Positions 1,998-58,673 of a DNA stretch of 64,000 nucleotides are shown here, piece by piece. Numbering within the stretch: the stretch's first letter is position 1; each line of letters starts with the position of its first letter. The translations under genes and the position numbers were made by a program. The DNA is taken from IMG/VR virus record IMGVR_UViG_2563366947_000002, one strand, 5' to 3'. The notes beneath the pieces are model-generated. The model was not told the DNA's origin. It ran no database searches and saw only the letters and a program-made list of their open reading frames with translations. This DNA is from a virus (Duplodnaviria > Heunggongvirae > Uroviricota > Caudoviricetes).

Positions 1998-2843
1998 TTA
2001 AACAGGTTGAAGGTGGTAATCCAAAGGCCACGCATCGAGTGGGGTTACATCAAGATGTAATTGCTTTTCTGCCGTTCGGTTCGGTATGGCGTTAAGAGAA
2101 ATATTGTCTACCTGGCAGGAGGTATCACTACGGGATAGCATATCAGCCATACTCTCAGTAACATAAACACCTTCAATTACCGAAACATCCGTAGACAAGC
2201 AATTTAGTATTTCTGCCACTTCAGGGAATACAGCACTAAGCCGAAACGAGACGCCATCAAAAACAATATGCAATGGCAACAAAGGGGCTATTACTGTTTC
2301 GAAGTCAGATAACAATTTCTGCACAGCGGCTTCTTTATCCTGCTCTCCATATGAGCGATATAGCTTGTTCTGATCAACAACGACCAGCCCCCTTGATGTC
2401 AGGAAGAGCTCACCGAATTGAGCCTGTGCCGTAGGTATTTCTATTTCGGTCGCAAAATATGAACCATAGGGGTGTTTTTCTATATTTACAGGTGCATATA
2501 GCGGTTCCCAACTAACAGGAATACAACCGAATTCACGCCAGAATGTCTGCTCAATAGGCAAGATAGTGCCTTTAAAGTGCACTTCATCTAAACGTTGCGC
2601 CAGCAGCATTGGCCTACGGGCCTTATCTTTTTCAGTGATAACGAAAAAACGCCCGTATTCAGCAATGCGGGCATCCATATCCTCACTGTCCATAGTGAAG
2701 AAGGATTTTCTGTTACTTATTCTTGTTAATATTGGTTCTACTGCCTCATTCCAGACATCTTGCAAAGCGTCTATAAAGGCACTCCAGAGATGGGAATCCT
2801 GTTTTACTTTAGTTAATCGTTCCTTAAGCCAATTATCTTTCAT
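1998..2843 (-). CDS. baseplate-associated protein (positional analog of P1 gp16)
   Basis: 281-aa ORF inside the baseplate/tail-fiber operon; no motif recognised. Confidence 0.4.
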   Translation of the reverse strand: MKDNWLKERLTKVKQDSHLWSAFIDALQDVWNEAVEPILTRISNRKSFFTMDSEDMDARIAEYGRFFVITEKDKARRPMLLAQRLDEVHFKGTILPIEQTFWREFGCIPVSWEPLYAPVNIEKHPYGSYFATEIEIPTAQAQFGELFLTSRGLVVVDQNKLYRSYGEQDKEAAVQKLLSDFETVIAPLLPLHIVFDGVSFRLSAVFPEVAEILNCLSTDVSVIEGVYVTESMADMLSRSDTSCQVDNISLNAIPNRTAEKQLHLDVTPLDAWPLDYHLQPV

Positions 2844-2853
2844 GCTAACCTCA

Positions 2854-4284
2854 TTACGGGTAAGAAATGTTGAACGTTGAAGATTTCACGTCAAGATAAA
2901 TGAAGTCATTAAAGTAAACAGCATCTTTCATATTTTGTATTGTTATGTCGTAAGACAGAAACATATCCAGAGACTCTATTACTCGCCAAATATCTTTAAC
3001 TTTTACCTGTGCATAACATTGCTGGGAATCATCATCACTCTGTAGTAATAAACTGAATGATGACGAATCACGACCAAAATTATCTTCCAACGCTGCTTTA
3101 ATAGCATTTTGAGCATCGTCTATCAGAACATTTTTACGTGCAATACCTATAAAATTTATAGTAAATGGCTGTTCATTTGTATCTACATACTCGAACCGCT
3201 TGTTTAACTCATTTGGAACATTCTCTAGAGCTTTCAGTATTTCTGATTTTAGCTGAGCCTGGCTTACACCCGGCTTATGTCCGCAAAAGAAAATTTTGTT
3301 GATGTTTCGAACGTCAAACCCAGTTATTTTCTCTTGTAACGCTTCGCCCCAAACGTTCAACCATGAAGTTCCATGAACAACATTCTGAATGAATTGGCGA
3401 TAATCACCGCCCCATACCACTTGTTCATCGTATGCAACATAATACTGAGCACGATTTCGAGTTTCTTCTGTAGTTTCCATACCACTACCACCGGTAATGA
3501 TCGAATCAGTTTTAAACTCTAGTGACTCCACATATTGAGCGATATTTCCAGCCGGTTCTAACTTTTGTCCTTCAGCCAAAGTATAGTCGCCAAGGCTAGC
3601 CATAACATCGATTCGAACCTGACAGCCTGCTGGAGGCATCATACCCATAGAACCATCACCAAACTTGACTCCAAGTTGTTCTGTAGGTTTATATGCCAAT
3701 GAATAGTGCTTACTCTTGTCTCTGGACATTCTAAATAATGGGTTATATGTCCATTTTTCTTCTACGCCATCTGTAATAACATAAACATCCAGGCTAGAGA
3801 CTTCTTTTGTTAACTCTCTGGAAAGCAACAATGTCAGAAATAAAGTTTCCTTCTCAATATCAAATGTAACGCTAACAGCTTCATGCTGTTTAGTTTCTAC
3901 GCCAGAAACAGTTCCTCCAGCAGGAATTACAACACTGTTAATAATTGCCAAAGGTGTTTGGTCATTGGCAAGCAATTCAGCCCCGGCTGGTAACGTAATA
4001 TCCCGATCAGTTTTATTGGTTATAGACGTTGTTCCGTATGAAGCACTAACAAATCGCCCTACGTAGCTACGGTCTTCAGCAACCGCTAAAATACTTGAGC
4101 GGCGCGTAGCCGTTGAAATAAGTCCCTCAGTGAGGCCGCGGCTTGCAAATGTACGGGCAATATAAATAAGCTGTGATCCGAATATAGCGTGCATCTGCAC
4201 AAACTGACTATTTACAAATCGTGACCACCATGTGTTTTCATTTAACTTGGCATTAAATTTGTCCAGTAATTCTGTAATCGTCAC
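2854..4284 (-). CDS. baseplate protein (BplA/gpJ-like)
   Basis: 476-aa ORF overlapping the upstream gene by 4 nt; position between gp25-like and tail-fiber genes. Confidence 0.45.
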   Translation of the reverse strand: MTITELLDKFNAKLNENTWWSRFVNSQFVQMHAIFGSQLIYIARTFASRGLTEGLISTATRRSSILAVAEDRSYVGRFVSASYGTTSITNKTDRDITLPAGAELLANDQTPLAIINSVVIPAGGTVSGVETKQHEAVSVTFDIEKETLFLTLLLSRELTKEVSSLDVYVITDGVEEKWTYNPLFRMSRDKSKHYSLAYKPTEQLGVKFGDGSMGMMPPAGCQVRIDVMASLGDYTLAEGQKLEPAGNIAQYVESLEFKTDSIITGGSGMETTEETRNRAQYYVAYDEQVVWGGDYRQFIQNVVHGTSWLNVWGEALQEKITGFDVRNINKIFFCGHKPGVSQAQLKSEILKALENVPNELNKRFEYVDTNEQPFTINFIGIARKNVLIDDAQNAIKAALEDNFGRDSSSFSLLLQSDDDSQQCYAQVKVKDIWRVIESLDMFLSYDITIQNMKDAVYFNDFIYLDVKSSTFNISYP

Positions 4285-4660: not shown

Positions 4661-7600
4661 TTAATCCTCAAGCAGAGCATCCAGCGACGGGTCATTAATA
4701 GTTGTGCTAGCACGTGGTCGCGGTTGCGGCTGCGATGTTTTGACAACCTTATCCGGATCGCCTTTTGTATTGTTCTTGTTCACATTCAGAAGATCGTTCA
4801 GGATAGAGCAGATGTTATCCAGCGCCTTCAACATAGCAGGATCGTTATTTATAGTGTCAGTAGTTAATGGTTGTCTTATTCCGCTTCGTGCGAGATCTGT
4901 TACAGTAGGAAGCTGTGGTGGCATAGCAAGAAAAGGTTCTTGCACGGCTGACGCAGAGCCAAATATGGCATTATTGGCTTCGTTTGATATACCTCTAATG
5001 CTATCTGCGGTTTGTTGAATACCATTATTCAGCCAACTACCGGCGCTCCTGGTAAGCGGGCTAATAGCCCTAGCAATTGTTGAGTTCTGCCCAGTAGCCT
5101 GATAAACCAAATCATTAACAATGCCAGTGCCATCTACCCCACCAATAAGTCGTGAAACGTTATCGCCAATTGCAGGTAACACAGCAGAGCTAATACGTTT
5201 CAGACCTGTTAATGACGAGTCAAACAAAGAGCCAAGCACCCCCTTATCTTCACCATCAATTACCTTGTATCCATTGTCATAAACTGGAATCCCCCTTGAG
5301 TTTACAGGGATTTTTTCACTCTCACTTGCCGAAGAAACACCGGAAAGAAGATCCACTGAAGGCATATCGCGTTCAGCTTTTGGTCTTTTTTGTAAAGCGT
5401 CTCTTATATCAGTTACCTGGCTTGCTTTTTGAAATCCAAAAGATTTACCGGTTAAGCTGGATATCTTTTCAGTAAGAGCCTGATCCATTCCTTTCGCTTT
5501 TTCGGAAAGCGAAGATATAGAACCAAACGAAGTCGCCGACGCAAAATCCTTAATCAGGCCAAGGCTTGTACCAGCAAGGCTGGTAGCCGCACCTCCAAAT
5601 AAATTACCTACCCCGCTGTCATTTATAGCGATTAATCTCTCAAGCAGACTTGATGGAGAGCCAGTATTAACATCAACGTTCTCTGGATTAATCGGTTGCG
5701 ATTGATTGCCTGTTTTTTGTGGCTTTTTGACTGCCTGGGCATGTTGTGCAACCTCAATTGGCTGTTGTGTTGCTGTCGGAACGGCATTCAAAACTGGTTG
5801 AGCTGGAGATTTTCCATTAACATATTTTATCTTGCGACCAACACTATATTGCGAATCGCGGGCAATTAGCTGACCACCATTTTCTTTCTGAATTTTATTA
5901 ATCCGCGCCAATGTTTCGTCAGAGAATTGTCCCTCCCATCGACCAGTATTTGTGTTAAATGCCCCAAGAGCATTCTTTATGAACTCATTGTTAACCGCCG
6001 GGTTTCCACCTTCTTTCGTCGCTATTGCACGAACTAATTGCGTCATAACCTCTGGGTTGCTGACGTCTATTTTTTCATTAGGCGAGACGCCAAGATATTT
6101 GCTGACGTTATCAATATATTGATTAGTATTATTCTCCTTTGGGGGTGCCCATTTGGAAATAATACTGGATACCGTCTGTAGCTTCTGATACCCAGCAGCG
6201 GCGCTGGTGCCGTTGTAATAGCTTGACACCTGGTTTGCCAGCGCCCTGATCCCTTCTTCAGGCGTGTTAAATCGCGCAAAACGTTGTTCACCTTTTGCAT
6301 TTGGCGCTTCCAGCGTCGCCCCTTCCTGATTAGCGAAAACAAGGTTGCCGAGATTATTATTCCGGTAATTGCGGTTTTTAGCGTTGCTGCCGCCAATATT
6401 CAGATCCGCTGCAATGGTGTTGCTGGTAGGGGCATTAAATTCAGCCGGGGAAGTATACCCGTGCTCACCAACACCATCTTCACCATCACGCCCGCCTTGT
6501 AGTTGTCGGCCCAGGTCATTAATTGCGGCTACCGTTTGCTTGGTGCCATCCTCAACGGCTTTCTTAACCTGCGCAGTGCCTTCGCTGCTTGATGAGAACG
6601 ATTCTTTTAGGCTGCTGAATACGGTTTTTGTCGTGTCTATAGAACTATTTATGTCACGAGCAATATCTCCGGTGTCAAAATTCTGAAGTTTTTCACCTGC
6701 CCTTTCGAAGCCTAACGCAGAAATCCCTTTGCCTATCAGGTTGGTTGCACCCGACACTAAGCCGCCCATATCAAGCACATTAGCTGTTGCATAAGCGGTT
6801 TTTTGCTGTGTGGATACAGCATTATCATCACTTAAGCCAAAGGCTGCCTTTTGCGCCTCTGCATCAGTGTAACCGTCTATAGCATCGTATCCTGCCATAG
6901 CGATATTTCCGATAATTGGGATTCCTCTGACGCCAGCCCTTACGGCTGCACCACCGGCAGCTTTTAATGCAATTTTACCTGCCTCTTTTTTTGCGAGGTT
7001 CTCCCCTGTTGCGATAGCTACTTTCTCAGTAGTTGCTTCAGTTGCAGCTTTGGCTATACCGGTACTGGCCGTTTTTCTGGCCCCTTTATCTGCAACTTTC
7101 TCCGTCGTTTTTGAGGCGTCACTGATAGCCTCTTTTCCGGCGTTTCGGGGTTGGCGGTTTTCATTTTTAGCGGAATCATTTTTGCTATTTTGTTGTTTTT
7201 TCTCAACTTTATCTTTTGGTATTGATGTATCGCCTTTTTCCGTTGCAGTTGTTTTAATCTTGTTCTTTTTTGCTTCAGGGCTTTTATCAACTCTTCTATC
7301 CCTTTTAGACTTGTTTTTGTTTCGATTTGTTTTATTCCGATTACGATTTGAAGTAATGCGATCTCTGTTTCGACTAAAAAGATCGCTTAACTTAATCCCA
7401 TTACCTTTTGTTTTCATGGATTTGCGGAGTTTTACTATTTCATCTGAAACATTCTCCAGCTCATCTATGATTCGAGCATCATTGGATTGAAGAACTTTGG
7501 TTTGTTCTTCAACTACTCGTACTGACTTTGCTTCAATCGCGTTGTTAAATGCTGCTGAGGAAACTGAATTTTTTTCATTTCTTGGCGCAGGGTAAGTGAT

Positions 7601-8479
7601 CGCTGGCGATTTCGCTTCGTGATCTGGTGGATTATCTACCCACTCCTTAAGAGATTTTGTTTTCCCTGTAATCTCTTTTGTTATGTCATACATGCCGCGA
7701 GCTGCCATCCATAACGGGCCACCAGCACCGACACCAGCAGCATTTGTTATGGCTTCTTCACCTGCAGACTGATGGCCATCCATCCCCATAATGGAACCTA
7801 GTTTTCGGAGGAAGCCTGCTTGTAATTCTGCGTCGGCTTTACGTGCGTTCTGCAATTCTTTTTTTCTGGCTACATCCTCATTGCTTTTTTGGGATACAAA
7901 ACGTCCATTACTATCCCGCAGCGGGCCTTTTAGACTTTGGGGGGATTGTGGTTCAAGAGGGGCTGAATTAGCCGCTACCGGTATAAAACCGTCCGATTTT
8001 CGGATGGTCTGACGTGATTGCACGGAGCGAACACTTTCTGGTGTGTTCGTTGCAACGATAGCGCGGTCCACGGTTTGGTTTATCGGTGCCCTTTCCTTTT
8101 TAGCAGGGAGACGTTTTTTATATGGGTTAGTTTGGGCATCTCTAACGCTATCAGATGTACTTTGCTCGTAGTCTTTACGCCTGCGTGATAGTCTGTTGCT
8201 AACTCTGCCTTGCCTTTCGTCCTGTTGAGTTATGGTGCTTGCCCCAGAAAGAATGGCGTCTTTTACCTCAGCAAGAGCTTTAAGTTCGTTTGTGCTCGCT
8301 TCCTGAATAGCGTCAATTATTGCGATACGGTCTTTATTCTCTTTCAAAATAACCTCTCTTTTACCAGCGCGATCAACGTTTCCCAGCTTGAGCTTTGTAT
8401 TTTTCTTCCAGGGCTTTTGACATATGGAGTGCTCGCCATTGCGGTAATTGTTCAACGTCGCTAACGGGCTGATATCCAT
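4661..8479 (-). CDS. large tail injection / tape-measure-like protein (P1 Sit-like)
   Basis: 1272-aa ORF with a Lys/Asn/Arg-rich low-complexity segment and Gly-rich stretches; position upstream of baseplate genes as in P1 sit. Confidence 0.55.
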   Translation of the reverse strand: MDISPLATLNNYRNGEHSICQKPWKKNTKLKLGNVDRAGKREVILKENKDRIAIIDAIQEASTNELKALAEVKDAILSGASTITQQDERQGRVSNRLSRRRKDYEQSTSDSVRDAQTNPYKKRLPAKKERAPINQTVDRAIVATNTPESVRSVQSRQTIRKSDGFIPVAANSAPLEPQSPQSLKGPLRDSNGRFVSQKSNEDVARKKELQNARKADAELQAGFLRKLGSIMGMDGHQSAGEEAITNAAGVGAGGPLWMAARGMYDITKEITGKTKSLKEWVDNPPDHEAKSPAITYPAPRNEKNSVSSAAFNNAIEAKSVRVVEEQTKVLQSNDARIIDELENVSDEIVKLRKSMKTKGNGIKLSDLFSRNRDRITSNRNRNKTNRNKNKSKRDRRVDKSPEAKKNKIKTTATEKGDTSIPKDKVEKKQQNSKNDSAKNENRQPRNAGKEAISDASKTTEKVADKGARKTASTGIAKAATEATTEKVAIATGENLAKKEAGKIALKAAGGAAVRAGVRGIPIIGNIAMAGYDAIDGYTDAEAQKAAFGLSDDNAVSTQQKTAYATANVLDMGGLVSGATNLIGKGISALGFERAGEKLQNFDTGDIARDINSSIDTTKTVFSSLKESFSSSSEGTAQVKKAVEDGTKQTVAAINDLGRQLQGGRDGEDGVGEHGYTSPAEFNAPTSNTIAADLNIGGSNAKNRNYRNNNLGNLVFANQEGATLEAPNAKGEQRFARFNTPEEGIRALANQVSSYYNGTSAAAGYQKLQTVSSIISKWAPPKENNTNQYIDNVSKYLGVSPNEKIDVSNPEVMTQLVRAIATKEGGNPAVNNEFIKNALGAFNTNTGRWEGQFSDETLARINKIQKENGGQLIARDSQYSVGRKIKYVNGKSPAQPVLNAVPTATQQPIEVAQHAQAVKKPQKTGNQSQPINPENVDVNTGSPSSLLERLIAINDSGVGNLFGGAATSLAGTSLGLIKDFASATSFGSISSLSEKAKGMDQALTEKISSLTGKSFGFQKASQVTDIRDALQKRPKAERDMPSVDLLSGVSSASESEKIPVNSRGIPVYDNGYKVIDGEDKGVLGSLFDSSLTGLKRISSAVLPAIGDNVSRLIGGVDGTGIVNDLVYQATGQNSTIARAISPLTRSAGSWLNNGIQQTADSIRGISNEANNAIFGSASAVQEPFLAMPPQLPTVTDLARSGIRQPLTTDTINNDPAMLKALDNICSILNDLLNVNKNNTKGDPDKVVKTSQPQPRPRASTTINDPSLDALLED

Positions 8480-32554: not shown

Positions 32555-33304
32555 TTGATAGCTTGTATGGGCAAAAATTCATCAACAGAAAACACATCTA
32601 CAATTGACTCAATCAAGGGCACAATGGATGAAGCCATAAAAGATAAATTATTTAATAAATTATTTGCATATGTGGTGGTTTCATTTTTTGTCGTTAATTG
32701 GCAAGAAATACTAATTTTGTTTAAATCTAAATATGATATATACACAACACTGTCTATAGTATGGGTAGGGGATAAATATCAAATCCCTTATTTTGGAACC
32801 TTCATTGTATCTCCGTTTTTAGCTCACTTTGTTATGCCGTTTATATATGGCACTATTGCGTCCATAGTAATGCCTTATATTACTATGCGTATATCAAAAC
32901 TAACTGGTAGAAATTATGCGCAAATAAGATACATTGACCATGAATTTGACTCAGAAGAGAAAGCAAGAGTAAAGGCGTTACTGAGAAACCTAAAGAAAAA
33001 AGAGGAAGAGCTTTTAAAATTAGAGGAACAAATAGAAGGTCAACAAAAAATACTGAATACAATCGAAGAAAAGAAGAGAGAGATTGAGAGTGCCAGAGTG
33101 GCTCTGTATCACGGTATAAAAGTAATTGTTGATATATATAAAGCAAAAGATAAAAGGATTTCCACCAAAGAAGATTTTGCCGATTTATTAAAAGCAATTG
33201 AAGGAAGTGATTTTTATAAAGACACTGGGTTGTGGGGTATTAATAATTTAATAGATGACGTGGAGACAATATATGAGTCTCAATCGACATCAAAGGACAA
33301 GTAA
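32555..33304 (+). CDS. membrane protein with two TM helices and a C-terminal coiled coil
   Basis: 249-aa ORF in a visibly AT-rich tract; start ambiguous (TTG 32555 or ATG 32567). Confidence 0.5.
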   Translation: MIACMGKNSSTENTSTIDSIKGTMDEAIKDKLFNKLFAYVVVSFFVVNWQEILILFKSKYDIYTTLSIVWVGDKYQIPYFGTFIVSPFLAHFVMPFIYGTIASIVMPYITMRISKLTGRNYAQIRYIDHEFDSEEKARVKALLRNLKKKEEELLKLEEQIEGQQKILNTIEEKKREIESARVALYHGIKVIVDIYKAKDKRISTKEDFADLLKAIEGSDFYKDTGLWGINNLIDDVETIYESQSTSKDK

Positions 33305-33337
33305 TATAAAAGGCGGGATAACCGCCTTTGTTGTAAA

Positions 33338-34534
33338 TTAAGAACCTTTCTTCACATACTCCATAAACATTTTTTCAGCTTGCTCAGGTGACGTTCCTGC
33401 CATGACAAGCGCATCAATGAACGCCTGCTTCTTCAGTGCGAACTGATCGGCAAGGCGTTGCTGAAGCTCCTTGTTTTTCTGTTTCTCACGTTGCAAGGCC
33501 GCTTCTTTTGCTGCCGCCCGTTTTTTCTGTGCGTCTGACAACTTTCTGGCTTTGGTCAATTGGTCACGTAGCTTGTCAATTTTGCCGTTGTCCTTTGCCA
33601 GTTTTGTGCTTAAAGCGGCCTGGCGCTTCTGATAGAGCCTCCATTCGCGCTTGGCAGCGTCAACGTTTGTTTTACTGTTGCGATTGCGATTAAACTCCCT
33701 CTCGTCTTCTTTTGAGAAGTGTTTGGTTGTACGGCGGCGATCGTCACCAAATGCAATTTGCGTTGCGGCCTTTTGTAACGCACGAGCAATACTCATTTGC
33801 CAACTAGCGGACTGTAACCGCGTCATTGAGTGGATCACGTGTTTACAGGCGACGCCTTGTAGCTTAGGGTTACGAACTTTTGGATAGGCGTATTCTTTTG
33901 GCGGGGCCAGGGCAAAGTTACCCGCAGTAGCGATGTAACGATACCAGTATTGATGACGACCACAGTCACAATCGAAAGACACCCGCCCGGCGCACAGTGA
34001 TTTAGTGATTTTCAGAGCTGATTTATCGTCTTCTGCGATGTCATCGACCATCTGATCCCATTCTTCAAAGCGTATCCGGACGATATGGTGCTGGTGGACG
34101 GATATATCCGATGCTTCTACGCGGATATTAATCACGTTGTGGCGAAGAGATACGGGTGTAGCTCTTTTGATACCAGATCCGTCATCCACGGCGTTATTTG
34201 CACGCTTAATATCGATTGCTTGGCTGGATGCCACCAGCTGGGCGTATGTGATGCCAGCCGTCTTGCTGTCATATTTTTCGCGTGTTTTACTCCGTAGCTT
34301 TTCGAAACCTTTCAGGTCGTCTCGCGTGAAGAACGTGCCGCCTTTTTTCTTCCCTAACTTGAGAATATCTTCGGCGGATTTGTTCCTCAGTCTACCTGGC
34401 GTCAGCGTCCGGTGAGCTTGTCGGCGCTTACGGGTTTGTTCTTTCCTGATAAGGTCGAATAAACGCGTGAAGTCCTTAGAGGACAGGCCGTCAGTGATAT
34501 AGCGCCCGTCCTGGTTTTTCAGGAAATCAGGCAT
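33338..34534 (-). CDS. SWIM-zinc-finger-like protein with basic coiled-coil C-terminus
   Basis: 398 aa; CxC..CxH pattern (FDCDCGRHQYW ... GVACKHVIH). Confidence 0.4.
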   Translation of the reverse strand: MPDFLKNQDGRYITDGLSSKDFTRLFDLIRKEQTRKRRQAHRTLTPGRLRNKSAEDILKLGKKKGGTFFTRDDLKGFEKLRSKTREKYDSKTAGITYAQLVASSQAIDIKRANNAVDDGSGIKRATPVSLRHNVINIRVEASDISVHQHHIVRIRFEEWDQMVDDIAEDDKSALKITKSLCAGRVSFDCDCGRHQYWYRYIATAGNFALAPPKEYAYPKVRNPKLQGVACKHVIHSMTRLQSASWQMSIARALQKAATQIAFGDDRRRTTKHFSKEDEREFNRNRNSKTNVDAAKREWRLYQKRQAALSTKLAKDNGKIDKLRDQLTKARKLSDAQKKRAAAKEAALQREKQKNKELQQRLADQFALKKQAFIDALVMAGTSPEQAEKMFMEYVKKGS

Positions 34535-36106: not shown

Positions 36107-36730
36107 ATGAAGGATGGTGTAGTGAAGTTAAGGGTTTTAGGGGCCGCGCTCGCGGCTATGTTGGGATGCGTATCTGTTAATACTGCCAATGCAACTGCGT
36201 TACCTGCACAATTCAGGGCAGGGCAGCAGGTTATGAATAACGCTGGTGGGGATCATTCACAAGCGGCAATTATGGACTTTTGCAAGAGGGAGGGCATTCC
36301 ATTACGGCCTGTTGGAACTCAGTTTATTGGTAAAACTGACTTTTGCGTTTTTGCATATACAGCATATCTGACGGACAAAGCTATAACAAAAACAGGTTAT
36401 TCAACCAAAGATACTCTTTCCAGATTAAGTCAGGGATGGCAGCAATTCGAAGTGTATCGCCAGCAAGGATTAGGTGAGTTATTGCAACCACTTTTTATGC
36501 TTGCGTTGGTGCCAGAGGGGCAGCAATTTTTGGTTAAAAAGGGAATGCTTCGCCAAAGTGATATTGCCGGGTTCGATAGCATGATGGCTTATGAGCGCAA
36601 ACTAACCGAGCAGCGAAATAAAAAACCATCTGCTTCATGTGTGCAAAGTAAAACAGCAGAATACAGTGCAGTAGCCGGGCCTTTAGCCAAACAAATGGCA
36701 GAGCAATGGTGTAAAAAATACGGGCAATAA
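36107..36730 (+). CDS. secreted protein (signal peptide)
   Basis: N-terminal LGAALAAMLGCVSVNTANA then a soluble domain. Confidence 0.45.
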   Translation: MKDGVVKLRVLGAALAAMLGCVSVNTANATALPAQFRAGQQVMNNAGGDHSQAAIMDFCKREGIPLRPVGTQFIGKTDFCVFAYTAYLTDKAITKTGYSTKDTLSRLSQGWQQFEVYRQQGLGELLQPLFMLALVPEGQQFLVKKGMLRQSDIAGFDSMMAYERKLTEQRNKKPSASCVQSKTAEYSAVAGPLAKQMAEQWCKKYGQ

Positions 36731-36750
36731 GTTACGCCGCGGAGGCAGAA

Positions 36751-37143
36751 TTGAAAAGATTGGCTATTGCTTTACTGGCGTCTTTCCCTTTGATCGCGAG
36801 CGCCGGAAATTTACAAGTTAAGTGCGGTCGGTTTGATATAAAAATCTATCCAGATGCCATATTTCTGAATGGGAATAAGGTTGATAACGCACACCGAAAA
36901 ACTGAATCTGACGTAATGAGCTATGTGTTCCAGGAGTATGCGGAGATGGGGGGAACTTACACGCTGTACTCGCTGGATGTTCCTTCTCGCGGTGATATGA
37001 CATTATCCCATCAATGGCAGAACGCCGATGGCGAAGCTCTGCGCGAGGTTAAAACAGAAAAATGTGGCACTTTCCATTCTTTTAAAGGGAAAGCGCCAAA
37101 TGTTAAATCTGTGCTTGAAAAACAGCGCGCAGGTGATTTTTAA
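36751..37143 (+). CDS. secreted protein (signal peptide)
   Basis: N-terminal MKRLAIALLASFPLIASA signal peptide; 130 aa. Confidence 0.45.
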   Translation: MKRLAIALLASFPLIASAGNLQVKCGRFDIKIYPDAIFLNGNKVDNAHRKTESDVMSYVFQEYAEMGGTYTLYSLDVPSRGDMTLSHQWQNADGEALREVKTEKCGTFHSFKGKAPNVKSVLEKQRAGDF

Positions 37144-37231
37144 ACTGCGTTAGAACTTTGAACATGGCGACAACACATCTTGGTGGCTGCGTTGTCGCTG
37201 TATGCTTTTATAATATAAAGCATTAAAGTTT

Positions 37232-37849
37232 TCATTTTTGTCGGATCTTTTCCAGCATATTTAATTCATTATCACTTTCTGCTGCTGAGACGGTTGGCCT
37301 CACATTTCCGAAATATTTCCTGTGAGACTCATGACTTATGTATTCACCGACAGTTTCATTCTTGAATATACGAATTTGACATATGCGAGATCCAACAATA
37401 AGTTCTACAGGGCTATTCCCATGATTAAATAACTCTAAAGATATACAGCCTCTGTACCCTGGTTGTATCATGGTATTTAATGAAAGACCAAGCCTTGTAT
37501 AGCTGCTTCTGGACAATACATCAGCGTAGCAATCTGGTGGCAAACAAACATATTCTAATGTTGTTGCCAGTACCACTTGATTCGGGTAAACAATGAATCT
37601 ATCCCCAAGATCTCTCCTTGTTTCCTGGAAAAATGTTCTGATTGGTTGATGAGTATCATTGTTTTTAGAGGGAATTAACTCTATTGACGGCTTCCTTGTC
37701 ATAATAGACACTAAAAAATCGTAACCAAGTCTAAGGTCTATGGTGAAGTTCCCAATTTGGTTTTTATTTAGAAGAGGTTCAATGAACAACGACTCAGGTT
37801 CTTCTGATTCATAATATTGCAGCAATTCAGCTTTGCTTAGGAGATTCAT
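37232..37849 (-). CDS. dCTP deaminase (Dcd) family protein, dUTPase fold
   Basis: Aligns with E. coli Dcd (SRSSYTRLGLSL vs GRSSLARLGLMV; PGYRGCISLELFNHG vs PGWSGCIVLEFYNSG). ATG at 37849 overlaps the upstream stop (ATGA), GGAG RBS. Confidence 0.7.
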   Translation of the reverse strand: MNLLSKAELLQYYESEEPESLFIEPLLNKNQIGNFTIDLRLGYDFLVSIMTRKPSIELIPSKNNDTHQPIRTFFQETRRDLGDRFIVYPNQVVLATTLEYVCLPPDCYADVLSRSSYTRLGLSLNTMIQPGYRGCISLELFNHGNSPVELIVGSRICQIRIFKNETVGEYISHESHRKYFGNVRPTVSAAESDNELNMLEKIRQK

Positions 37850-38919
37850 TGTGCACTCCATTTTTCAAGAATCATTACGTTTCGAATCGATTTTTCAACC
37901 AAATCATTTATAGTTTTTTCTATGGCTTCTTTTGACAACCCAGACCATATACCCGTAGGTTTTTCCCATTCAGAGCATAAGTACTGCCAGCTGCTGTTAA
38001 TAAAAGCATGCATTTCATTGTGGTCGCGAATAACAAAAGGACGCACATTATCAAAAGCTGATTTCACATCAAGCAAAGGTGTCGGCAATGTCAAACAAGG
38101 AGAAATAATCTGCCCACCCTTATGTAAGGCTGATATCACAGCATTGAACATGCCAACAACTGGATTTTCCACTTTGTTCAAAAAGTCGCTTACAATTTTA
38201 ACTCTATCTTCTGTGGATGGGTGAGTATAGCTTGCAGGATGAGAGCCAGCTAATTTGTATAAGAAATCTACCCCACTTTTTCCAATAAATTGGGCACTAA
38301 ATAGATCTGCAAAATATTCTCTGCAATGATTTATCCAAATAACATCAGGTAGATTACTCCATTCTGGTCCAGGAAGTGTGCCTTTGTCCTTGGAACGATA
38401 GTTAAGACAGGCAAGCTCAGAAATACCTTTGCTAATATCAACGAAATGTCCCAATTCGTGATATAAAGGTATAGAGCATAATGGTCGTCTTCTGTACATT
38501 TCAGGTAATGAAATCTGGATTAATTCGACCTCGAATTTGACATTTAAAACTTCATCAAATAAAGAATACAAATTCTTGTTTACAGACTTAAAATAAAACC
38601 CATGCATATCTGGAGATAGGGCAGTGGTTATAAGTGTTTTTTCACTTATCCATTTTTTACAGGCATCATTTAAGCAATAAACAATCTCGTAGGGAATTTT
38701 CTTTGTAGTACTGCCAGTGAAAAAATTAACTGCATCGGTGATAAAAAAAGTACAATCCGCAATTATTTTATCAGCAACATTCACATGGTTTTCATAGAGC
38801 TTATCTACCGCTTCTTGTAGAACAGCAAGATATTCATGCATGTCTTTAGAAAAATAGGGAGATTCTGATATCTCCCTTAGCTTATTTCGAACTAATGTAA
38901 GTTGTGTAAATGCAAGCAT
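37846..38919 (-). CDS. HExxH zinc-metallopeptidase-like protein (ImmA/IrrE-like?)
   Basis: 357 aa; HELGH motif then EYFADLF; start overlaps the upstream stop (TAATG). Confidence 0.55.
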   Translation of the reverse strand: MLAFTQLTLVRNKLREISESPYFSKDMHEYLAVLQEAVDKLYENHVNVADKIIADCTFFITDAVNFFTGSTTKKIPYEIVYCLNDACKKWISEKTLITTALSPDMHGFYFKSVNKNLYSLFDEVLNVKFEVELIQISLPEMYRRRPLCSIPLYHELGHFVDISKGISELACLNYRSKDKGTLPGPEWSNLPDVIWINHCREYFADLFSAQFIGKSGVDFLYKLAGSHPASYTHPSTEDRVKIVSDFLNKVENPVVGMFNAVISALHKGGQIISPCLTLPTPLLDVKSAFDNVRPFVIRDHNEMHAFINSSWQYLCSEWEKPTGIWSGLSKEAIEKTINDLVEKSIRNVMILEKWSAQ

Positions 38920-39224
38920 TAAATGTACTCTAATACATTCCGGGCCATTACGGGTTCTAACATATCTTCGCTAGTTACTTTGGTTAGCACCTGGGCGAGC
39001 GCCTTAGTGTGGCGTATCTCTACCGCGAGCGAGATGGACTCTCTGTGAGAAGGAATCTGTAATTGATCACCTTTATCTACACTTAAGTTTGAGGCTTCTC
39101 TGATCACCTCATAAACCCGTAACTTTAACTGCTGTGACACTTCTTGTTGAGATGCTATAAGCTGAAGTACAGTCTTGATTAACTTCAAAGAATCAGAAGC
39201 TTGCTGAGGAACCGCATAGAGCAT
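38919..39224 (-). CDS. small helical protein, first gene of the three-gene operon
   Basis: 101 aa; strong AAGGAGG RBS 6 nt upstream. Confidence 0.5.
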   Translation of the reverse strand: MLYAVPQQASDSLKLIKTVLQLIASQQEVSQQLKLRVYEVIREASNLSVDKGDQLQIPSHRESISLAVEIRHTKALAQVLTKVTSEDMLEPVMARNVLEYI

Positions 39225-39360
39225 AACCCCTCCTTTTCCCTTATCTATAACCGCTTTCTTTTTTCTGTGGATGTTAAAAGTAGAAGCGGTTTTTACCTTT
39301 TATAATATATATAGTGTCTAAAACTAATTTTGGCACTATATATGGCATGATATCTATGTT

Positions 39361-39406
39361 TTAAAGACACAAAAGCTCTGTTAAAACAGAGCTTTTGTGT
39401 CTTTAA
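39361..39406. repeat. perfect 20-bp inverted repeat (TTAAAGACACAAAAGCTCTG / CAGAGCTTTTGTGTCTTTAA) around a 6-nt centre
   Basis: Read directly; lies between the 95-aa gene stop and the operon promoter. Confidence 0.7.
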
Positions 39407-39550
39407 CTTGATCATTTTCTCGCTGAAGTGTATGTCAGGCTTAGCTCATAATCAAGTTGCTTCCAAGCTAAAAATGAGCTATTTCACTGAAACACCAAGA
39501 GCGGGATGTTTCATTTATTTGCGTTGGGCCTGACGGGGTGCAGATGAGTT

Positions 39551-39838
39551 TTAGCTCATCACACTATAACGACGGGGAACGGAATTCTCCATCAGGTCAC
39601 GAATTACTCCCGCTTCATGTAGTTCCTCTGTCTCCCAGTATCTGTTTGTCACCAGATCGAGGCTGGCTATGACCTTGTGCCGGTCATTCGGCATAGCCAA
39701 TTTTTCTGCTATAACCATCAGTGAAAACTCTTCATCCAGTAGAATTTGATACCAGACTTTTGACAGTTCCAACTCTCTAATGAGGGTGAAGCGCCGCTCA
39801 AGTGTGGCGGCAGAATAAGTGAAATCTATTTTTTTCAT
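39551..39838 (-). CDS. hypothetical protein
   Basis: 95-aa ORF downstream of the Rha-like gene. Confidence 0.4.
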   Translation of the reverse strand: MKKIDFTYSAATLERRFTLIRELELSKVWYQILLDEEFSLMVIAEKLAMPNDRHKVIASLDLVTNRYWETEELHEAGVIRDLMENSVPRRYSVMS

Positions 39839-45610: not shown

Positions 45611-45648
45611 ATATGTTAGAACATTGATTTTAGTTTTCTAACATATTA
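45611..45648. promoter_or_regulatory. pair of C1-type operator-like motifs
   Basis: ATATGTTAGAACATTG and TTTTCTAACATATTA upstream of the 45686 gene. Confidence 0.4.
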
Positions 45649-46681: not shown

Positions 46682-46685
46682 TGAG

Positions 46686-47387
46686 GTGGATCAAAAAATG
46701 AAAGAACGCGGGATGATTTTTAACGATGAGATGGTCAGGGCCATCCTCGAAGGAAGGAAGACGCAGACTCGCCGACCTGTAAAAAATGTCAGGGCCGATA
46801 ACTGCCTGGTTATCCGTAAACCGACAAAGAAACGCAATGGTGTCTATACCCACGTTATGGATGCACCTGAACATGGTTTATGCCCGTTCGGTAACGTTGG
46901 TGATCGCATATGGGTCCGTGAGGCGTGGGCGATATTAGGCAATGAGGATGGTTGCAGTGTGGACTGGAACGACAACCTTTGTCGTGGCGATGAGAAGAAC
47001 GCAGCAAGGATTTATCGGGCCAGTTGTGAGCAAAAGCCGGGTGATTACGGCTTGTGGTCGATACCCGATGATGCCGACTGGAAACCTCACACTGTGAATG
47101 AAAAATTTGATGGCGGGTGGTGTCCATCAATTCACATGCCGCGCTGGGCATCGCGCATTCTTCTGGAAATTACCAACGTGCGCGTTGAGCGGTTGAACGA
47201 TATCAGCGAATGCGATGCAAGGGCTGAGGGCGCACCAACAGAATCGACCCTCATTGGCGATAAGCATTACCCATGTTTCCGTAGCCTATGGAAATCAATT
47301 TATGGCGAAGATAGTTGGAACGCTAATCCTTGGGTGTGGGTAATCGAGTTTAAGCGTATTCAGGGGGCAACCAGTGAGCAAGATTGA
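46686..47387 (+). CDS. ASCH-domain-like protein
   Basis: N-terminal MVRAILEGRKTQTRR is a typical ASCH signature. Confidence 0.45.
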   Translation: MDQKMKERGMIFNDEMVRAILEGRKTQTRRPVKNVRADNCLVIRKPTKKRNGVYTHVMDAPEHGLCPFGNVGDRIWVREAWAILGNEDGCSVDWNDNLCRGDEKNAARIYRASCEQKPGDYGLWSIPDDADWKPHTVNEKFDGGWCPSIHMPRWASRILLEITNVRVERLNDISECDARAEGAPTESTLIGDKHYPCFRSLWKSIYGEDSWNANPWVWVIEFKRIQGATSEQD

Positions 47388-53294: not shown

Positions 53295-53789
53295 TTATAA
53301 CTTTTCGTACTGAAGCGGTGAACGCTTAATTTCAAAGTGGCCTTCCGATGTGCTACCAAAGCCACCATCACCACGTTCCGTTTCGTTGAGTTCCTCAACC
53401 TCGACTAGTGAGACTTGTTCAACACGCTCAAAAATTCCTTGCATGACAGCCATTCCAGGCTTGAGACAAACGCCTTCCCCGCCGGGATCAGTAATCAGTT
53501 TTGCCATGATTTCGCCGCGATAATCGGAGTCGATAATTCCTACGCAGTTAGCCAGGCGAGTATGTTTTTTGCAGCCCAATCCGGATCGCGGATAGAGTTT
53601 CAGACACCAGCCGGGCGGGATCTCCATAGCCAATCCGGTGTACACCCACCAGCTTGAGGAAATTGCACCATTGCTATCGACACATGGTTTTATTTCAACA
53701 GCCTCAAAATCCATCGCCGCCGATCCGGAGGTGGCATAAGCTGGAAGTTTTGCTGCCGGATGTAGGCGTTTCACTTTTACGTAAATCAT
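53295..53789 (-). CDS. dut: dUTPase
   Basis: Classic dUTPase motifs GIIDSDYRGEI and RGDGGFGSTS. Confidence 0.8.
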   Translation of the reverse strand: MIYVKVKRLHPAAKLPAYATSGSAAMDFEAVEIKPCVDSNGAISSSWWVYTGLAMEIPPGWCLKLYPRSGLGCKKHTRLANCVGIIDSDYRGEIMAKLITDPGGEGVCLKPGMAVMQGIFERVEQVSLVEVEELNETERGDGGFGSTSEGHFEIKRSPLQYEKL

Positions 53790-54262
53790 TGTTTTTTAGC
53801 TCTCTGCGTGAAGGTGTAAACCCGACGTTTGATATGTGGAACGGTTGGAACAGGAAGACAGGAACTTTCAATAACTCCTTGCTCCTCCAGCGATCGCACC
53901 GCCCGCAAGAACTGCGACGTGTCGCCGCCAAACTGGCGGGCATAGGTGCTGCCGTTATGAAGTATTTGAGCTATTACCCGAGCTTTTGTCTGGCTGTCAC
54001 GATATGCGAATAGCCGCACGGCCTCTTCTGGCGCAATCGATAACTGATAGCCTTTACCGGCACGGTGTCGAATGAATCCATGCGCCAGTAGGTTTTTGAG
54101 TTCGTTACGAGTGCGAACAGATCCGTAATCCAGGAAGTGTGGATTGATAACGACTGGCTTAAACCATTCCGTAGGTGCTTTAGCTAATAGAGCTAACAGC
54201 TTCCCGGACAATCCTGGATAGGAAGACGGGTAACAATTCAGAGATGGGTAATAAGTTTTCAC
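53786..54262 (-). CDS. hypothetical protein
   Basis: 158-aa ORF coupled to dut. Confidence 0.4.
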   Translation of the reverse strand: MKTYYPSLNCYPSSYPGLSGKLLALLAKAPTEWFKPVVINPHFLDYGSVRTRNELKNLLAHGFIRHRAGKGYQLSIAPEEAVRLFAYRDSQTKARVIAQILHNGSTYARQFGGDTSQFLRAVRSLEEQGVIESSCLPVPTVPHIKRRVYTFTQRAKKQ

Positions 54263-54615
54263 CGACGCCCCCTTGCCGGATATCGACCTGCATTAGTATC
54301 CGGTGCAATAAAGCCGGTAGTGGGGCGAGTGAAAGCGAGATTAATCTTCTCGACCATAGTGCGATAATTTTCCTGATAGTGGGCCAGGAGTTTTTCGGCG
54401 GCAATGATGGTTACTTTCCGGACGTAGCTTTCTGCTTCCTCCAGATTTCGCCAGTTTTTTTCGAGGGTAAACACAGGGACGGCCTCAAGCCCGGTCATGA
54501 TGCCGAATACAACGACAGCATGACTGTTCTTAACACCAGCGGCGAAGGTTACGGTGTAACCATCCACCGTGAAGCGTCTTGATTCCGTGATTTGACTCTG
54601 CAAAGCACCCTCCAA
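54259..54615 (-). CDS. hypothetical protein
   Basis: 118-aa ORF. Confidence 0.4.
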   Translation of the reverse strand: MEGALQSQITESRRFTVDGYTVTFAAGVKNSHAVVVFGIMTGLEAVPVFTLEKNWRNLEEAESYVRKVTIIAAEKLLAHYQENYRTMVEKINLAFTRPTTGFIAPDTNAGRYPARGRR

Positions 54616-54656
54616 AATAGGCGAGGGTACTTTACAGCAAAGATATCAATCTAAAA

Positions 54657-54674
54657 AGATGTGTTAGAAATTTA
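54657..54674. promoter_or_regulatory. C1-type operator-like motif (GATGTGTTAGAAATTT)
   Basis: Motif family member upstream of the 54615 operon. Confidence 0.35.
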
Positions 54675-54676
54675 AT

Positions 54677-55705
54677 TTATGAATCCATCAAGCGGCTATT
54701 AGCCCCCACAGACACACCGCCACGGCGCAGATACCGCATAAGTGTTTCCGGTTTCTTCCAGGTTCCTTCCTGCATAATCTCCACCATAGACACCTGCTTT
54801 TCAGCCATATCGATAGCGGCCCCGACACGAGCACTATGCCCGGTCCACGTCCGGTATCTCCCTTTGTTTGGCGTGGCATCCCTTTTATTCAGCAACACCC
54901 AGGCGTCGCTGAATATTTTCTCCATTGCAGGTGCAGTAAGGGGCGTTGTCGTAATCCTGGCCTTATTGCTACGGTGTATCGGCGGGAACAGCACCGCGTC
55001 AGGATGTTCACGAAGCCCGGAAACATCCAGCCAGTCATTCAGCACAGCAGTAGTGCGACGGGAAAGCACCTTATCAAGCCCGGCGGCGGTCGTTATTGTC
55101 TTCGTGTGTGAAATATGTAGCGTGACAGTGTCACCTGTTTGGTCCAGATCTCCTACACGAATACGCGAGATTTCCGACATACGCATCAGCGTATTGTATG
55201 CAACAAAGAGAAAAGCCCGGTTGCGCAGGTCCACCAGCCGTTCTGACCTGGACAACAGGACGTCGAGCAGTTTCAGGTCGTCCCATCGCAGCGGTATAGC
55301 CTGGCCTGTTCGTTCGCCTTTTTCCGTTGCCGCTTCGCGCCGGATACGCCGCATAGCCAGAGAAACACTTTTATCATCCGAAAGTGGCGGAAGGCCACAA
55401 TGAGAAAGCAGCATGTTAAGCATGGCGTAGTGCTTATCAATGGTGGTCGAAGCCAGATCGGCATCATGCAACTGAAGAAAATACTCGCGGGCCATTTCTG
55501 GTGAGATCGGAAACCAGGCAAGCTGGCGAGCGTGACACCAGCGCGCCCAGGAATGAAACACCAACCGGAGGTCGCGCAGAGTATTCGGCGCATAAGCACC
55601 CTGATCATTCATGAACCGCATAAAGTTTTCTGCGGCTTCCTGGTACTCTTTGCCAATGTTGCGCAGAAAACCACCGGAACTGCCAGAGATAATTAATTCA
55701 CTCAT
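54677..55705 (-). CDS. dre: Cre-family tyrosine site-specific recombinase (Dre-like)
   Basis: 342 aa, alignable with P1 Cre along its length (LVMRRIRKE vs LAMRRIRRE, SGHSARVGAA conserved); begins MSELIISGSSGGFLRN as I recall for phage D6 Dre. Confidence 0.9.
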   Translation of the reverse strand: MSELIISGSSGGFLRNIGKEYQEAAENFMRFMNDQGAYAPNTLRDLRLVFHSWARWCHARQLAWFPISPEMAREYFLQLHDADLASTTIDKHYAMLNMLLSHCGLPPLSDDKSVSLAMRRIRREAATEKGERTGQAIPLRWDDLKLLDVLLSRSERLVDLRNRAFLFVAYNTLMRMSEISRIRVGDLDQTGDTVTLHISHTKTITTAAGLDKVLSRRTTAVLNDWLDVSGLREHPDAVLFPPIHRSNKARITTTPLTAPAMEKIFSDAWVLLNKRDATPNKGRYRTWTGHSARVGAAIDMAEKQVSMVEIMQEGTWKKPETLMRYLRRGGVSVGANSRLMDS

Positions 55706-55857
55706 GAAACCATTTCACCTCTATATACAGATGACGCTACGCGAAAAATATAAAAATGACAGGGTAGCTATAAGTTAATTTTCAAAATACAAGCCTTTGA
55801 TTGGAGGCACGTATTTTCAGTGATGTCAATACTGTTCATCTACACATGATTATAGCC

Positions 55858-55889
55858 TAACTTTAAATAATGCCAATTATTTAAAGTTA
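55858..55889. other. rox-type recombination site: 14-bp inverted repeats TAACTTTAAATAAT / ATTATTTAAAGTTA around GCCA
   Basis: Perfect 32-bp palindrome with asymmetric 4-bp spacer, about 150 bp upstream of the recombinase start. Confidence 0.85.
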
Positions 55890-55988
55890 TAAAATGCCGA
55901 TTTTTTTTAATCCATCATAGATTGATGATGACCAGTAACACGTTGCCTTCATGGTCTTTAATTAGCGAAGTGTGGTTTCTACGGTTGG

Positions 55989-56087
55989 TTTTCTAAAATT
56001 GATGACAAAAAATCACAGTTCGATCCTTTACTCACTCTGTTATTCGACATAAATTTGTCATAGTAATTTTATGTTAGAAAACTAAAT
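55989..56087. promoter_or_regulatory. two C1-type operator-like motifs upstream of the 56100 gene
   Basis: TTTTCTAAAATTG (55989-56001) and ATGTTAGAAAACTA (56070-56083). Confidence 0.4.
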
Positions 56088-56099
56088 CGAGTAGGAATA

Positions 56100-57137
56100 A
56101 TGAGTAAGAAGTCGATCGAGAAAGAGTACAAACGGTTCCTGCAAACCGCTGAACGGTGGAAAGAGCTGGTGGTCGCAAACTCTGTTTTCCATGATACCAG
56201 TTATGCTGGCGAGGAATTCCGCCATGTTGCATTAACGCATGACCAAAACATATTAGAAGAAGCTGAAAAATGTCTTGCTGAATGGAAAGCCTTCGTTGAC
56301 ATGTGCCGCGATGCCGACGGCAAAGCGTCGAACATTGTTGAGTCTGTATATTCTCCGATCCCATTCATCATTGAGGACACCAATCAAAGCACGCATGTCG
56401 TTGTGCAAAGCGCTACAACAACACGTACATTTACACGTGAACAATTGCTAAAAAAATACGACAAAATCATAAAGAAAAGCCTGAAAAATAGGGTTTTTTC
56501 TCAAATCGTAGGTGCTCTTGAAGAAGAACAGCGCTTCTTTGAAGCTGAGCCTGAAGGCGAGATCTACCGGGCGCGTAAAGAGGCATATACAGATGTTGTG
56601 CTGACAACAAACATCGAAGGCAGCAATGCCCTTTCTCGCTTTAGAGTTGGCGCACATGGCGCATTGGTTTTCGCAAGACAACCGAAGACAACGATCCCCG
56701 TTGTCAATAATGTTGGTGAACGCCGGAGCATTACAATTTATTCTGGCGTCGAATCGGTACCTTGCAGCCTTCTCGGCGATTTTAACTTATATCGTGTTCG
56801 TGACCTGGAAAAACACCAGCCAAGCTACGTTGCGAAGTCGTACATCTTAAGGAACATCGATATTCGCAATGAAAGCCTTAAGCAGAAATCCGCTAAGATG
56901 CTGGAGGATGCCGATCCGGCTATTCGCCATATCATTGAGCGTAAGATACGTACATCACGTGAAGCAATGGCAAGGCTGGATAAAATGGATCTGGAATTGT
57001 TAGACGTAATGATGGCCTCTGGAGACGACCTGACCGGCATTAAACTGAATGAAGCTCGTAAAAAATACGGCAAAGCAATCGAAGAACGTTACGGATACAC
57101 ATTCCCCCAAACGCAGTACGCCGCGAAGCTCTGGTAA
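56100..57137 (+). CDS. hypothetical protein; possible immunity repressor by position (P1 c1/coi slot)
   Basis: 345-aa ORF divergent from the recombinase across rox, convergent with pacB, preceded by two operator-like motifs; no HTH recognised. Confidence 0.4.
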   Translation: MSKKSIEKEYKRFLQTAERWKELVVANSVFHDTSYAGEEFRHVALTHDQNILEEAEKCLAEWKAFVDMCRDADGKASNIVESVYSPIPFIIEDTNQSTHVVVQSATTTRTFTREQLLKKYDKIIKKSLKNRVFSQIVGALEEEQRFFEAEPEGEIYRARKEAYTDVVLTTNIEGSNALSRFRVGAHGALVFARQPKTTIPVVNNVGERRSITIYSGVESVPCSLLGDFNLYRVRDLEKHQPSYVAKSYILRNIDIRNESLKQKSAKMLEDADPAIRHIIERKIRTSREAMARLDKMDLELLDVMMASGDDLTGIKLNEARKKYGKAIEERYGYTFPQTQYAAKLW

Positions 57138-57164: not shown

Positions 57165-58673
57165 TTATATATCCAGATCCGGCATTTCGATATCCGCCAG
57201 AACCTGATCTCGGAAAGTTGCCATTTCGGCACCAATATCTTCATTAGCAGGCACATAGTCCACCAGCATAGTGAAGCAGTAGGTATCCCATCGGTCAGGC
57301 GATTTGATGTTTAGCTTTTGCCGCATGTGCTCTTTGCGCATCATCGCCATTTTCCCTTCTTCATTCAGTAAAAAGGGGATTTTTGACGCTTGCTCTGCCG
57401 TTTTAGGGTCACTGTCTATCCGCATACGCCCTGACTTTATGGCATCACGCGCCATAATATTTGCGTAGGCACGCTGATTAACAAATCGCTCCCTGTCTTT
57501 GTTCGCAAACATGGGTTTTCCCCACCGAATACGTACCGGGTTCGCACCACGACGCACCAACTGCGCACACGTATCAGAACCAAAACCATCAGCATCAACC
57601 GCGATTGTTATATTCGGGTATTTTTCCGGCGTACATTCGTTATATATGAAGTCAGCAAAGGCCAATGGGTCCATAGTGCCAGGCATCTCCATTACCTTAA
57701 AGTTAACAACGCGCCGCTTATCCCTGTGACCTGATACCTTGCAGATGTTGAGGACCGACTTATCTCGCCCATTACCAACGTCAGCCGTTGCCACCCATCC
57801 CCAGTTTTTCTCCAACAACACCTTGCGGCGAGCAGCGCGATCGCATTCATCACGACCAAGCAAATAGCCGTTAATTTCTCGTGGGAACTGACCAAGCACC
57901 TTGACCATGTACTCAATAGAATCGCGCCCGCCATATTCCAGAAGCTTCTGCTTGATGAATTGTGGTGTGACGAACGGTGATTCTTCCGAGTTAAGAACAA
58001 TTGCTGTCCAGATCCCTTTCGGGTTGTCTGGGGTTTTTGCTTGAGAATGGTGCGAATCGTAGAAATAACCACTTGGCCTTGTTGGCTGGGATAGCATCAA
58101 CATCCGGTTATCTTCTTCAGTAAGAGCACCGGTCATTACGCCGATCGCCTTATCAGATATACCAGATGCTTCATCCAGAATTAGAAGCAAATGTGCCGCG
58201 TGTTCCCCCGCCAGCGCTTCTTCGTTGCCGAGTCGATAACCTTTGCAGAGAACTTCCCAAATCCCCTTACGGGAGCGCTCATAAAACATGGTGTCAGAGA
58301 GGACAAAATAGGTCTGCAACCACCCATGACGCTTAACTGCATTCGCCCAATACTGTTTAACGTATTTGAATACGCCTGTTTTTACCTGGCCTATCTTGTT
58401 AGCAACAATGATGACACGGGCATCGGGGAACAGGATCATGAAAATCAACAGCAACATCGCGGTAAGGGACGACTTCCCCGTTCCGTGTCCGGACGTGACG
58501 GTCGTCCTACTCCCCGTTTCCTGCACGGACTGAATGATCTGCTGCTGCTGGTGGGAGGGGAACATCCCAAAAATATCGACAACAGCTTGGGTAAAGTTGT
58601 AGCGGTATTTGATTACCATATCGCGCCAGCGTGGATCGCTGGTGACGCATTTAATCTTGCGCCCTCCAGCCAT
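57165..58673 (-). CDS. pacB: terminase large subunit (PacB-like)
   Basis: Walker A TSGHGTGKSS and Walker B LLLILDEAS; 502 aa. Confidence 0.8.
   Translation of the reverse strand: MAGGRKIKCVTSDPRWRDMVIKYRYNFTQAVVDIFGMFPSHQQQQIIQSVQETGSRTTVTSGHGTGKSSLTAMLLLIFMILFPDARVIIVANKIGQVKTGVFKYVKQYWANAVKRHGWLQTYFVLSDTMFYERSRKGIWEVLCKGYRLGNEEALAGEHAAHLLLILDEASGISDKAIGVMTGALTEEDNRMLMLSQPTRPSGYFYDSHHSQAKTPDNPKGIWTAIVLNSEESPFVTPQFIKQKLLEYGGRDSIEYMVKVLGQFPREINGYLLGRDECDRAARRKVLLEKNWGWVATADVGNGRDKSVLNICKVSGHRDKRRVVNFKVMEMPGTMDPLAFADFIYNECTPEKYPNITIAVDADGFGSDTCAQLVRRGANPVRIRWGKPMFANKDRERFVNQRAYANIMARDAIKSGRMRIDSDPKTAEQASKIPFLLNEEGKMAMMRKEHMRQKLNIKSPDRWDTYCFTMLVDYVPANEDIGAEMATFRDQVLADIEMPDLDI

Follow-up and report, generated by a model that had tools for sequence, protein, structure and literature searches.

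A Cre-like recombinase gene and its adjoining 32-bp site match the known Dre/rox system of D6-type P1-like phage-plasmids

The window, by which we mean the whole 64,000-nucleotide stretch of viral DNA analyzed here, carries a gene for a Cre-like tyrosine recombinase, dre, on its minus strand (Table 1). The recombination site rox lies just upstream of dre, inside the pac-c1 (immC) region, as annotated in AY753669.1. The prophage repressor gene c1 diverges from dre across rox, with 210 bp between c1 and rox. On the other side, 152 bp separate the dre ATG (55705) from rox (55858), in good agreement with the spacing of about 150 bp estimated in an earlier reading made from the sequence alone. The interval singled out in that sequence-only reading, 54677-55889, coincides exactly with the stretch bounded by the dre stop codon and the far end of rox.

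Table 1. Features at and around the dre/rox locus, with positions in the window
Feature	Position	Strand	Basis or remark
dut, dUTPase	53295-53789	-	Downstream of dre; annotated in AY753669.1 and MF356679
orf3	53786-54262	-	Downstream of dre; annotated in AY753669.1 and MF356679
orf2	54259-54615	-	Downstream of dre; annotated in AY753669.1 and MF356679
dre, Cre-like tyrosine recombinase	54677-55705	-	342-aa ORF
dre 5' leader	55706-55848	-	GAGGTG ribosome-binding site ~10 nt before ATG
Putative sigma-70 promoter for dre	55849-55876	-	11/12 consensus match; 16-nt spacer
Putative promoter, -10	55854->55849	-	TATAAT
Putative promoter, -35	55876->55871	-	TTGGCA
rox recombination site	55858-55889		Reads TAACTTTAAATAATGCCAATTATTTAAAGTTA on the + strand; 32/32 match to published wild type
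rox, arm	55858-55871
rox, spacer	55872-55875		GCCA
rox, arm	55876-55889
c1, prophage repressor	56100-57137	+	ORF; annotated in AY753669.1 and MF356679
pacB, terminase	57165-58673	-	ORF; annotated in D6 records
pacA, terminase	58673-60037	-	ORF; annotated in D6 records

The product of dre had been described as a Cre homolog, and database comparison bore this out: the 342-residue ORF matches every Cre crystal-structure chain in the PDB (E ~5e-69, residues 22-341) as well as the Pfam family Phage_integrase (PF00589, E 5.3e-17). In a global alignment, the protein was 40.5% identical to P1 Cre (translated from AF234172) over 338 aligned positions. All 7 of the Cre active-site residues were kept: R173, E176, K201, H289, R292, W315, and Y324 of Cre align with R175, E178, K202, H290, R293, W316, and Y325 of Dre, and these are the positions given in PMC4777119. 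The more specific proposal, that the protein is Dre itself, was likewise supported by alignment. All 342 residues are identical to those of GenBank Dre (AAV84949.1, from AY753669) and of D6_118 (ASR76376.1, from MF356679), and no differing published Dre or rox sequence was found. The AY753669.1 record annotates dre as "tyrosine recombinase; similar to the P1 Cre recombinase." At the nucleotide level, a megablast search of window positions 54300-56300 against ~50,700 phage records returned three matches only, all of them phage D6; AY753669.1 ("Enterobacteria phage D6 immC region") is 100% identical to this segment over 2001 bases. The Dre/rox system of Escherichia/Salmonella phage D6 was reportedly described by Sauer and McDermott in 2004.

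The site itself has the 14-4-14 architecture TAACTTTAAATAAT-GCCA-ATTATTTAAAGTTA, an exact match at 55858-55889. Published accounts isolate Dre first from phage D6 and give rox the same 14-4-14 organization (PMC12331466; PMC4777119). The window site is identical at 32/32 positions to the wild-type roxP oligonucleotide of PMC4777119, TAACTTTAAATAATGCCAATTATTTAAAGTTA, and AY753669.1 carries a misc_recomb feature, "region of crossover (rox) site for Dre recombinase," whose positions correspond exactly, so that the match to rox proposed in the sequence-only reading proved correct. That reading had also called the site a perfect 32-bp palindrome. This description holds for the arms, which form a perfect 14-bp inverted repeat, but not for the GCCA spacer, which is not self-complementary (reverse complement, TGGC). 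Because the spacer is asymmetric, the 32-mer as a whole is not a perfect palindrome, and the rox site has a direction.

Within the 64-kb window, the rox 32-mer occurred a single time even with three mismatches permitted, and it was seen in 0/100 dinucleotide-preserving shuffles of the window; the D6 genome also holds one copy. In a search blind to any knowledge of rox, the site emerged as the second-longest perfect short-loop inverted repeat in 64 kb, with arms of 14 bp versus a maximum of 11 bp in 20 first-order Markov simulations. A search of the window for extra rox half-sites found one two-mismatch match only (39180), where 0.68 would be expected by chance; the window holds no pseudo-rox sites beyond chance. 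The origin of the MF356679 record falls mid-rox, and both resulting halves (MF356679.1 positions 1-16 and 91144-91159) are labeled "right half of rox site," a small annotation slip.

We scanned public collections for both rox arms flanking any 4-nt spacer. In IMG/VR, 23 viral contigs were recovered, with spacer GCCA in 21, GCTA in one, and CCCC in one. In 20/23 contigs, the distance from the site to the start of a Dre homolog is 152-153 bp, and the relative orientation is unchanged; in the other 3/23, the rox site lies at the edge of the DNA examined. Most homologs were 99-100% identical to Dre, two were 94% identical, and one was 69.9% identical. The most divergent homolog (2527-3552), in IMGVR_UViG_3300009011_000012, accompanies a site with identical 14-bp arms and spacer GCTA (locus L012, 3706-3737). 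The CCCC spacer lies beside a 99.4%-identical Dre in IMGVR_UViG_2579778873_000001 (locus L019, 12405-12436), and may reflect genuine variation or an error of assembly. These natural relatives are consistent with a module whose components evolve together.

Among 185,579 representative genomes, the same scan gave one rox-arm match, on the chromosome of an uncultured Clostridia metagenome-assembled genome (MAG) (OZ007016.1; locus L006, 6381-6412). Here exact rox arms surround the spacer TAAT, the whole being embedded in a longer A7...T6 palindrome, and tblastn detected no Dre homolog within 8 kb of the arms. We rejected this match as a rox site on account of its spacer, its longer A/T palindrome, and the lack of Dre; it is probably a chance AT-rich hairpin. 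The Clostridia example indicates that AT-rich hairpins of rox type can arise independently, and it thereby lends something to the idea that the inverted repeat in the window is itself such a hairpin (a terminator or chance palindrome) or a c1 operator, functionally unlinked to the recombinase. We consider that idea extremely improbable for the window. Its site is identical at 32/32 positions to an experimentally validated rox, and excision by Dre at a pair of such 32-mers has already been published for the identical sequence. The arms together with the 152-153-bp spacing to dre are fixed in all 20 related contigs whose examined DNA includes dre, while the c1-side flank varies. Moreover, a scan for terminator-like structures did not list the rox stem, which departs from the terminator pattern because it contains only two G-C pairs.

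Taking the protein and the site together, sequence comparison makes it almost certain that the module is the known Dre/rox site-specific recombination system of a D6-type P1-like phage-plasmid. The dre/rox stretch is already known and is identical to published genome-engineering tool sequences. Published work on the same protein and site reports excision and integration by Dre at rox, though not at loxP, with no need of accessory proteins (PMC12331466; PMC4777119). Nothing in the analysis spoke against the identification. One Dre monomer would occupy each 14-bp rox arm, and two occupied rox sites would then be brought into synapsis as a tetramer. Strand exchange would proceed via a Holliday junction, with Tyr325 as the nucleophile alongside R-K-H-R-W catalytic residues and no accessory proteins, and the asymmetric GCCA spacer would set the direction of rox.

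Pfam gives the protein only the generic Phage_integrase family, an assignment that a conventional phage integrase would share. Such an enzyme would insert the element at a chromosomal attB, with the inverted repeat as the attP core, and 10/253 places where the element was found in complete E. coli genomes are indeed chromosomal. Several observations leave this account with a negligible probability. The protein is identical to Dre, which works on the minimal 32-bp site without accessory factors (PMC12331466), and the site is a simple 14-4-14 repeat around which no arm-type repeats were found. The remaining 243/253 places are on plasmids of ~90 kb, and genes for plasmid replication, partition, and addiction are present on the element.

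Cre/lox of P1 resolves plasmid-prophage dimers and circularizes terminally redundant DNA after infection. Acting at its single site, Dre/rox would similarly resolve dimers of the plasmid prophage, favoring faithful segregation of a low-copy plasmid, and would circularize terminally redundant phage DNA after infection. We regard dimer resolution and circularization as probably the natural roles of rox, and the location of 243/253 E. coli places on plasmids fits a role in dimer resolution.

The relationship of the window to phage D6 extends well beyond the recombination module. By BLAST against the doubled D6 genome, the window is collinear with MF356679 from 36396 through 91159 to 8127, across the record origin. 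About 91% of the window aligned at 88-99.6% identity, with most blocks at 97-99.6% and one block at 91%; the first 598 bases of the window (tail-fibre gene S, adjoining cixR) were 88% identical. Window parts that lacked an MF356679 alignment were 6899-7631 (inside sit), 32740-33345, 36159-39612 (the simB locus), and 46684-47362, and replaced segments total ~5.5 kb. Inside the dre/rox module there was no difference from the MF356679 genome; elsewhere the two differ by ~0.4-3% plus the replaced segments. AY753669.1 is 99.5% identical to the window over 7.3 kb and shows the same neighbors in the order dut-orf3-orf2-dre-rox-c1-pacB-pacA-lpa. Thus, the claim that the window is D6-like was confirmed, as was the expectation that much of the backbone would probably already be described, given the coverage by D6 and the fact that the replacements are known from D6-like prophages.

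These close relatives include the D6-like plasmid prophages of Salmonella and E. coli pYU39_89, pSL26_91 (CP032492), and CP123682.1. The 5 kb surrounding dre/rox were 99.8% identical to CP123682.1 and were present at ≥80% coverage in 108 PLSDB plasmids and 95 complete E. coli genomes. D6-like plasmid prophages, pSL26_91 among them, diverge at simB and sit, which are divergent regions of the window too (PMC6799933). The cassette that replaces simB in the window was 100% identical to CP123682.1 and 99.7% identical to pSL26_91. None of the records in the searched collections was identical to the window over 25 kb; the best was CP123682.1, with 92% coverage at 98.7% identity and with ISVsa5. On these alignments, the window represents a variant of the D6-type phage-plasmid and not the MF356679 isolate, and its closest relative is the Salmonella plasmid CP123682.1.

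Several window segments were also 91-95% identical to P1, P7, and RCS47, a resemblance that would be expected if the element were P1/P7 itself, with Cre/lox. Either this or an unrelated new Cre-like system, in place of a D6-type element, is very hard to reconcile with the comparisons, and we assign both together next to no probability. The recombinase shares only 40.5% identity with Cre, the dre region matches only the three D6 records in the phage collection, and the window is collinear with D6 at 97-99.6%. No loxP site or cre gene was seen in the window.

Other features of the window deserve description beside these comparisons. The 3.4-kb cassette at 36159-39612, in place of the D6 simB region, contains five or six ORFs. 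One of these, on the minus strand at 37232-37861, is a dCTP-deaminase-like gene (Pfam PF22769, 1.3e-30) in an apparent three-gene operon with genes for 357-aa and 101-aa proteins lacking a Pfam or PADLOC match. A PADLOC scan of this non-D6 cassette gave no matches. Because the cassette sits at the position of the P1-family superimmunity locus, it might contribute to phage exclusion or to nucleotide metabolism. The longest palindrome in the window, a perfect 46-bp palindrome at 39361-39406 with 22-nt arms (TTAAAGACACAAAAGCTCTGTT/AACAGAGCTTTTGTGTCTTTAA), lies in a segment that has no D6 match, flanked by a "transcriptional regulator" ORF (39551-39838, minus strand) on one side and by the dcd operon, which starts at 39224, on the other. 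The palindrome may serve as an operator or as a bidirectional terminator. ARAGORN detected four tRNA genes on the minus strand (61957-62032, 63018-63104, 63570-63645, and 63648-63723), the products being a CAT-anticodon "Met" tRNA, Ser-TGA, Thr-TGT, and Asn-GTT. Despite its collinearity with the window, MF356679 annotates three tRNAs here, on the plus strand and with no CAT-anticodon tRNA, a discrepancy that is probably an annotation gap or strand error.

A consensus scan for sigma-70 promoters pointed to a putative promoter for dre that overlaps rox (Table 1). Its -35 element, TTGGCA, consists of the rox spacer together with a single base from either arm, and its -10 element, TATAAT, lies three bases outside the rox arm. 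This combination, TTGGCA-16-TATAAT, was the sole match of at least 11/12 to the consensus within the 64-kb window, where chance predicts ~1.2 such matches per 64 kb, both strands counted, and ~0.0014 for the rox interval and strand. Promoter-like sites in the region as a whole numbered 2 versus 2.6 in shuffles, with no excess. TATAAT was found at a constant offset in all 23 of the related viral contigs, including the one with the 70%-identical Dre homolog. The spacer variants carry a weakened -35, TTAGCA in IMGVR_UViG_3300009011_000012 and TGGGGA in IMGVR_UViG_2579778873_000001. When six diverged intergenic regions were aligned, the rox arms and TATAAT were invariant and the c1-side flank was mosaic. 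The 70-85 nt of the leader adjoining the dre ATG (~55706-55790) were nearly invariant among diverged homologs, and beside the 70%-identical Dre homolog the conservation of this leader block exceeded that of the coding sequence.

Also present in the dre leader is AATTAACTT-5 nt-TACCCT, whose TACCCT part coincides with the -10 of P1 LPpac. An Lpa-dependent late promoter of P1 type found no support in this leader: the pattern AAGTNACTT-N3-6-TANNNT, built on a -22 box consensus, had 2 sites in the window versus 2.45 expected.

If the overlapping element is functional, a sigma-70 promoter with its -35 in the rox spacer would drive transcription of dre. Since the putative -35 overlaps the rox spacer, Dre bound at rox could occlude the dre promoter and so repress its own synthesis by negative autoregulation. 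The invariant -10 in 23/23 contigs suggests Dre autoregulation. Nevertheless, we lean slightly against the full proposal, in which rox doubles as the operator of the dre promoter and bound Dre shuts off its own transcription, and put it forward tentatively. If true, the 4-bp spacer would be under a double constraint from strand exchange and promoter strength. A full-text literature search, whose coverage did not extend to the primary D6 papers, returned nothing relevant on a promoter or autoregulation at rox.

A further motif, [GA]TTTTCTAACA[TC], was noted at 18070, 27978, 41855, 42512, 45613/45633, 55988, and 56071. With up to two mismatches allowed, it had 13 matches in the window versus 6.8 expected, and a count of 13 was reached in 3/100 shuffles. 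The region upstream of c1 has a copy on either side, and the copies at 45613/45633 are inverted relative to each other; a weaker copy, TTTCTAACA, follows directly after the dre stop codon at ~54661-54675. The motif resembles the core of the P1 C1 operator (CTCTAATAAAT), which makes these sites candidate D6 C1 operators.

The Dre/rox match thus fixes the window as a D6-type P1-like phage-plasmid, and its value lies chiefly in annotation, with rox serving as a landmark and as the conventional genome origin. Dre/rox is in standard use for genome engineering and shows no cross-reaction with Cre/lox (PMC12331466), and its rediscovery in a natural element adds no new biology. Mildly new are the overlap of rox with a promoter-like element and the spacer and recombinase variants seen in nature, among them the 70%-identical Dre that keeps the rox arms. 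These findings are modest and putative but may be of use to recombinase engineers and to P1-family specialists.

The system in the window is best understood by comparison with Cre/lox of P1. Read along the minus strand, the window has the order lpa-pacA-pacB-c1(reverse)-rox-dre-orf2-orf3-dut, and P1 has the order lpa-pacA-pacB-c1(reverse)-coi-imcB-imcA-lox-cra-cre. P1 and D6 therefore have in common the order pacA-pacB-c1-site-recombinase. In both, the canonical site orientation is opposite to the sense strand of the recombinase gene, and the record origin falls inside the recombination site. In contrast, D6 lacks cra between the site and the recombinase gene, where it has 152 bp versus 418 bp in P1 (lox end 17, cre start 436), and it lacks coi and imcAB between c1 and the site, where it has 210 bp versus ~700 bp in P1. 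Promoters are annotated beside lox in the P1 record, none of them inside it, whereas in D6 a promoter-like -35 lies within the rox spacer. In P1, the pac site is marked by a cluster of TGATCR hexamers (Dam-site), but pacA of the window (58673-60037) contained one copy (59445) and no cluster; across the window, TGATCR occurred 84 times versus 75 expected. The lack of a cluster in pacA implies that the packaging signals of D6 differ from those of P1, and the D6-type pac site is thus probably distinct. At the level of the recombination system itself, Cre and Dre share a fold family and catalytic residues, and the sites differ in both arms and spacer, with rox built as 14-4-14 (32 bp) and loxP as 13-8-13 (34 bp). 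Together with the 40.5% identity to Cre, the 32-bp site sets the window apart from P1 Cre/loxP. Judged by these sequence comparisons, the module in the window is one that works like Cre/lox yet is distinct from it.
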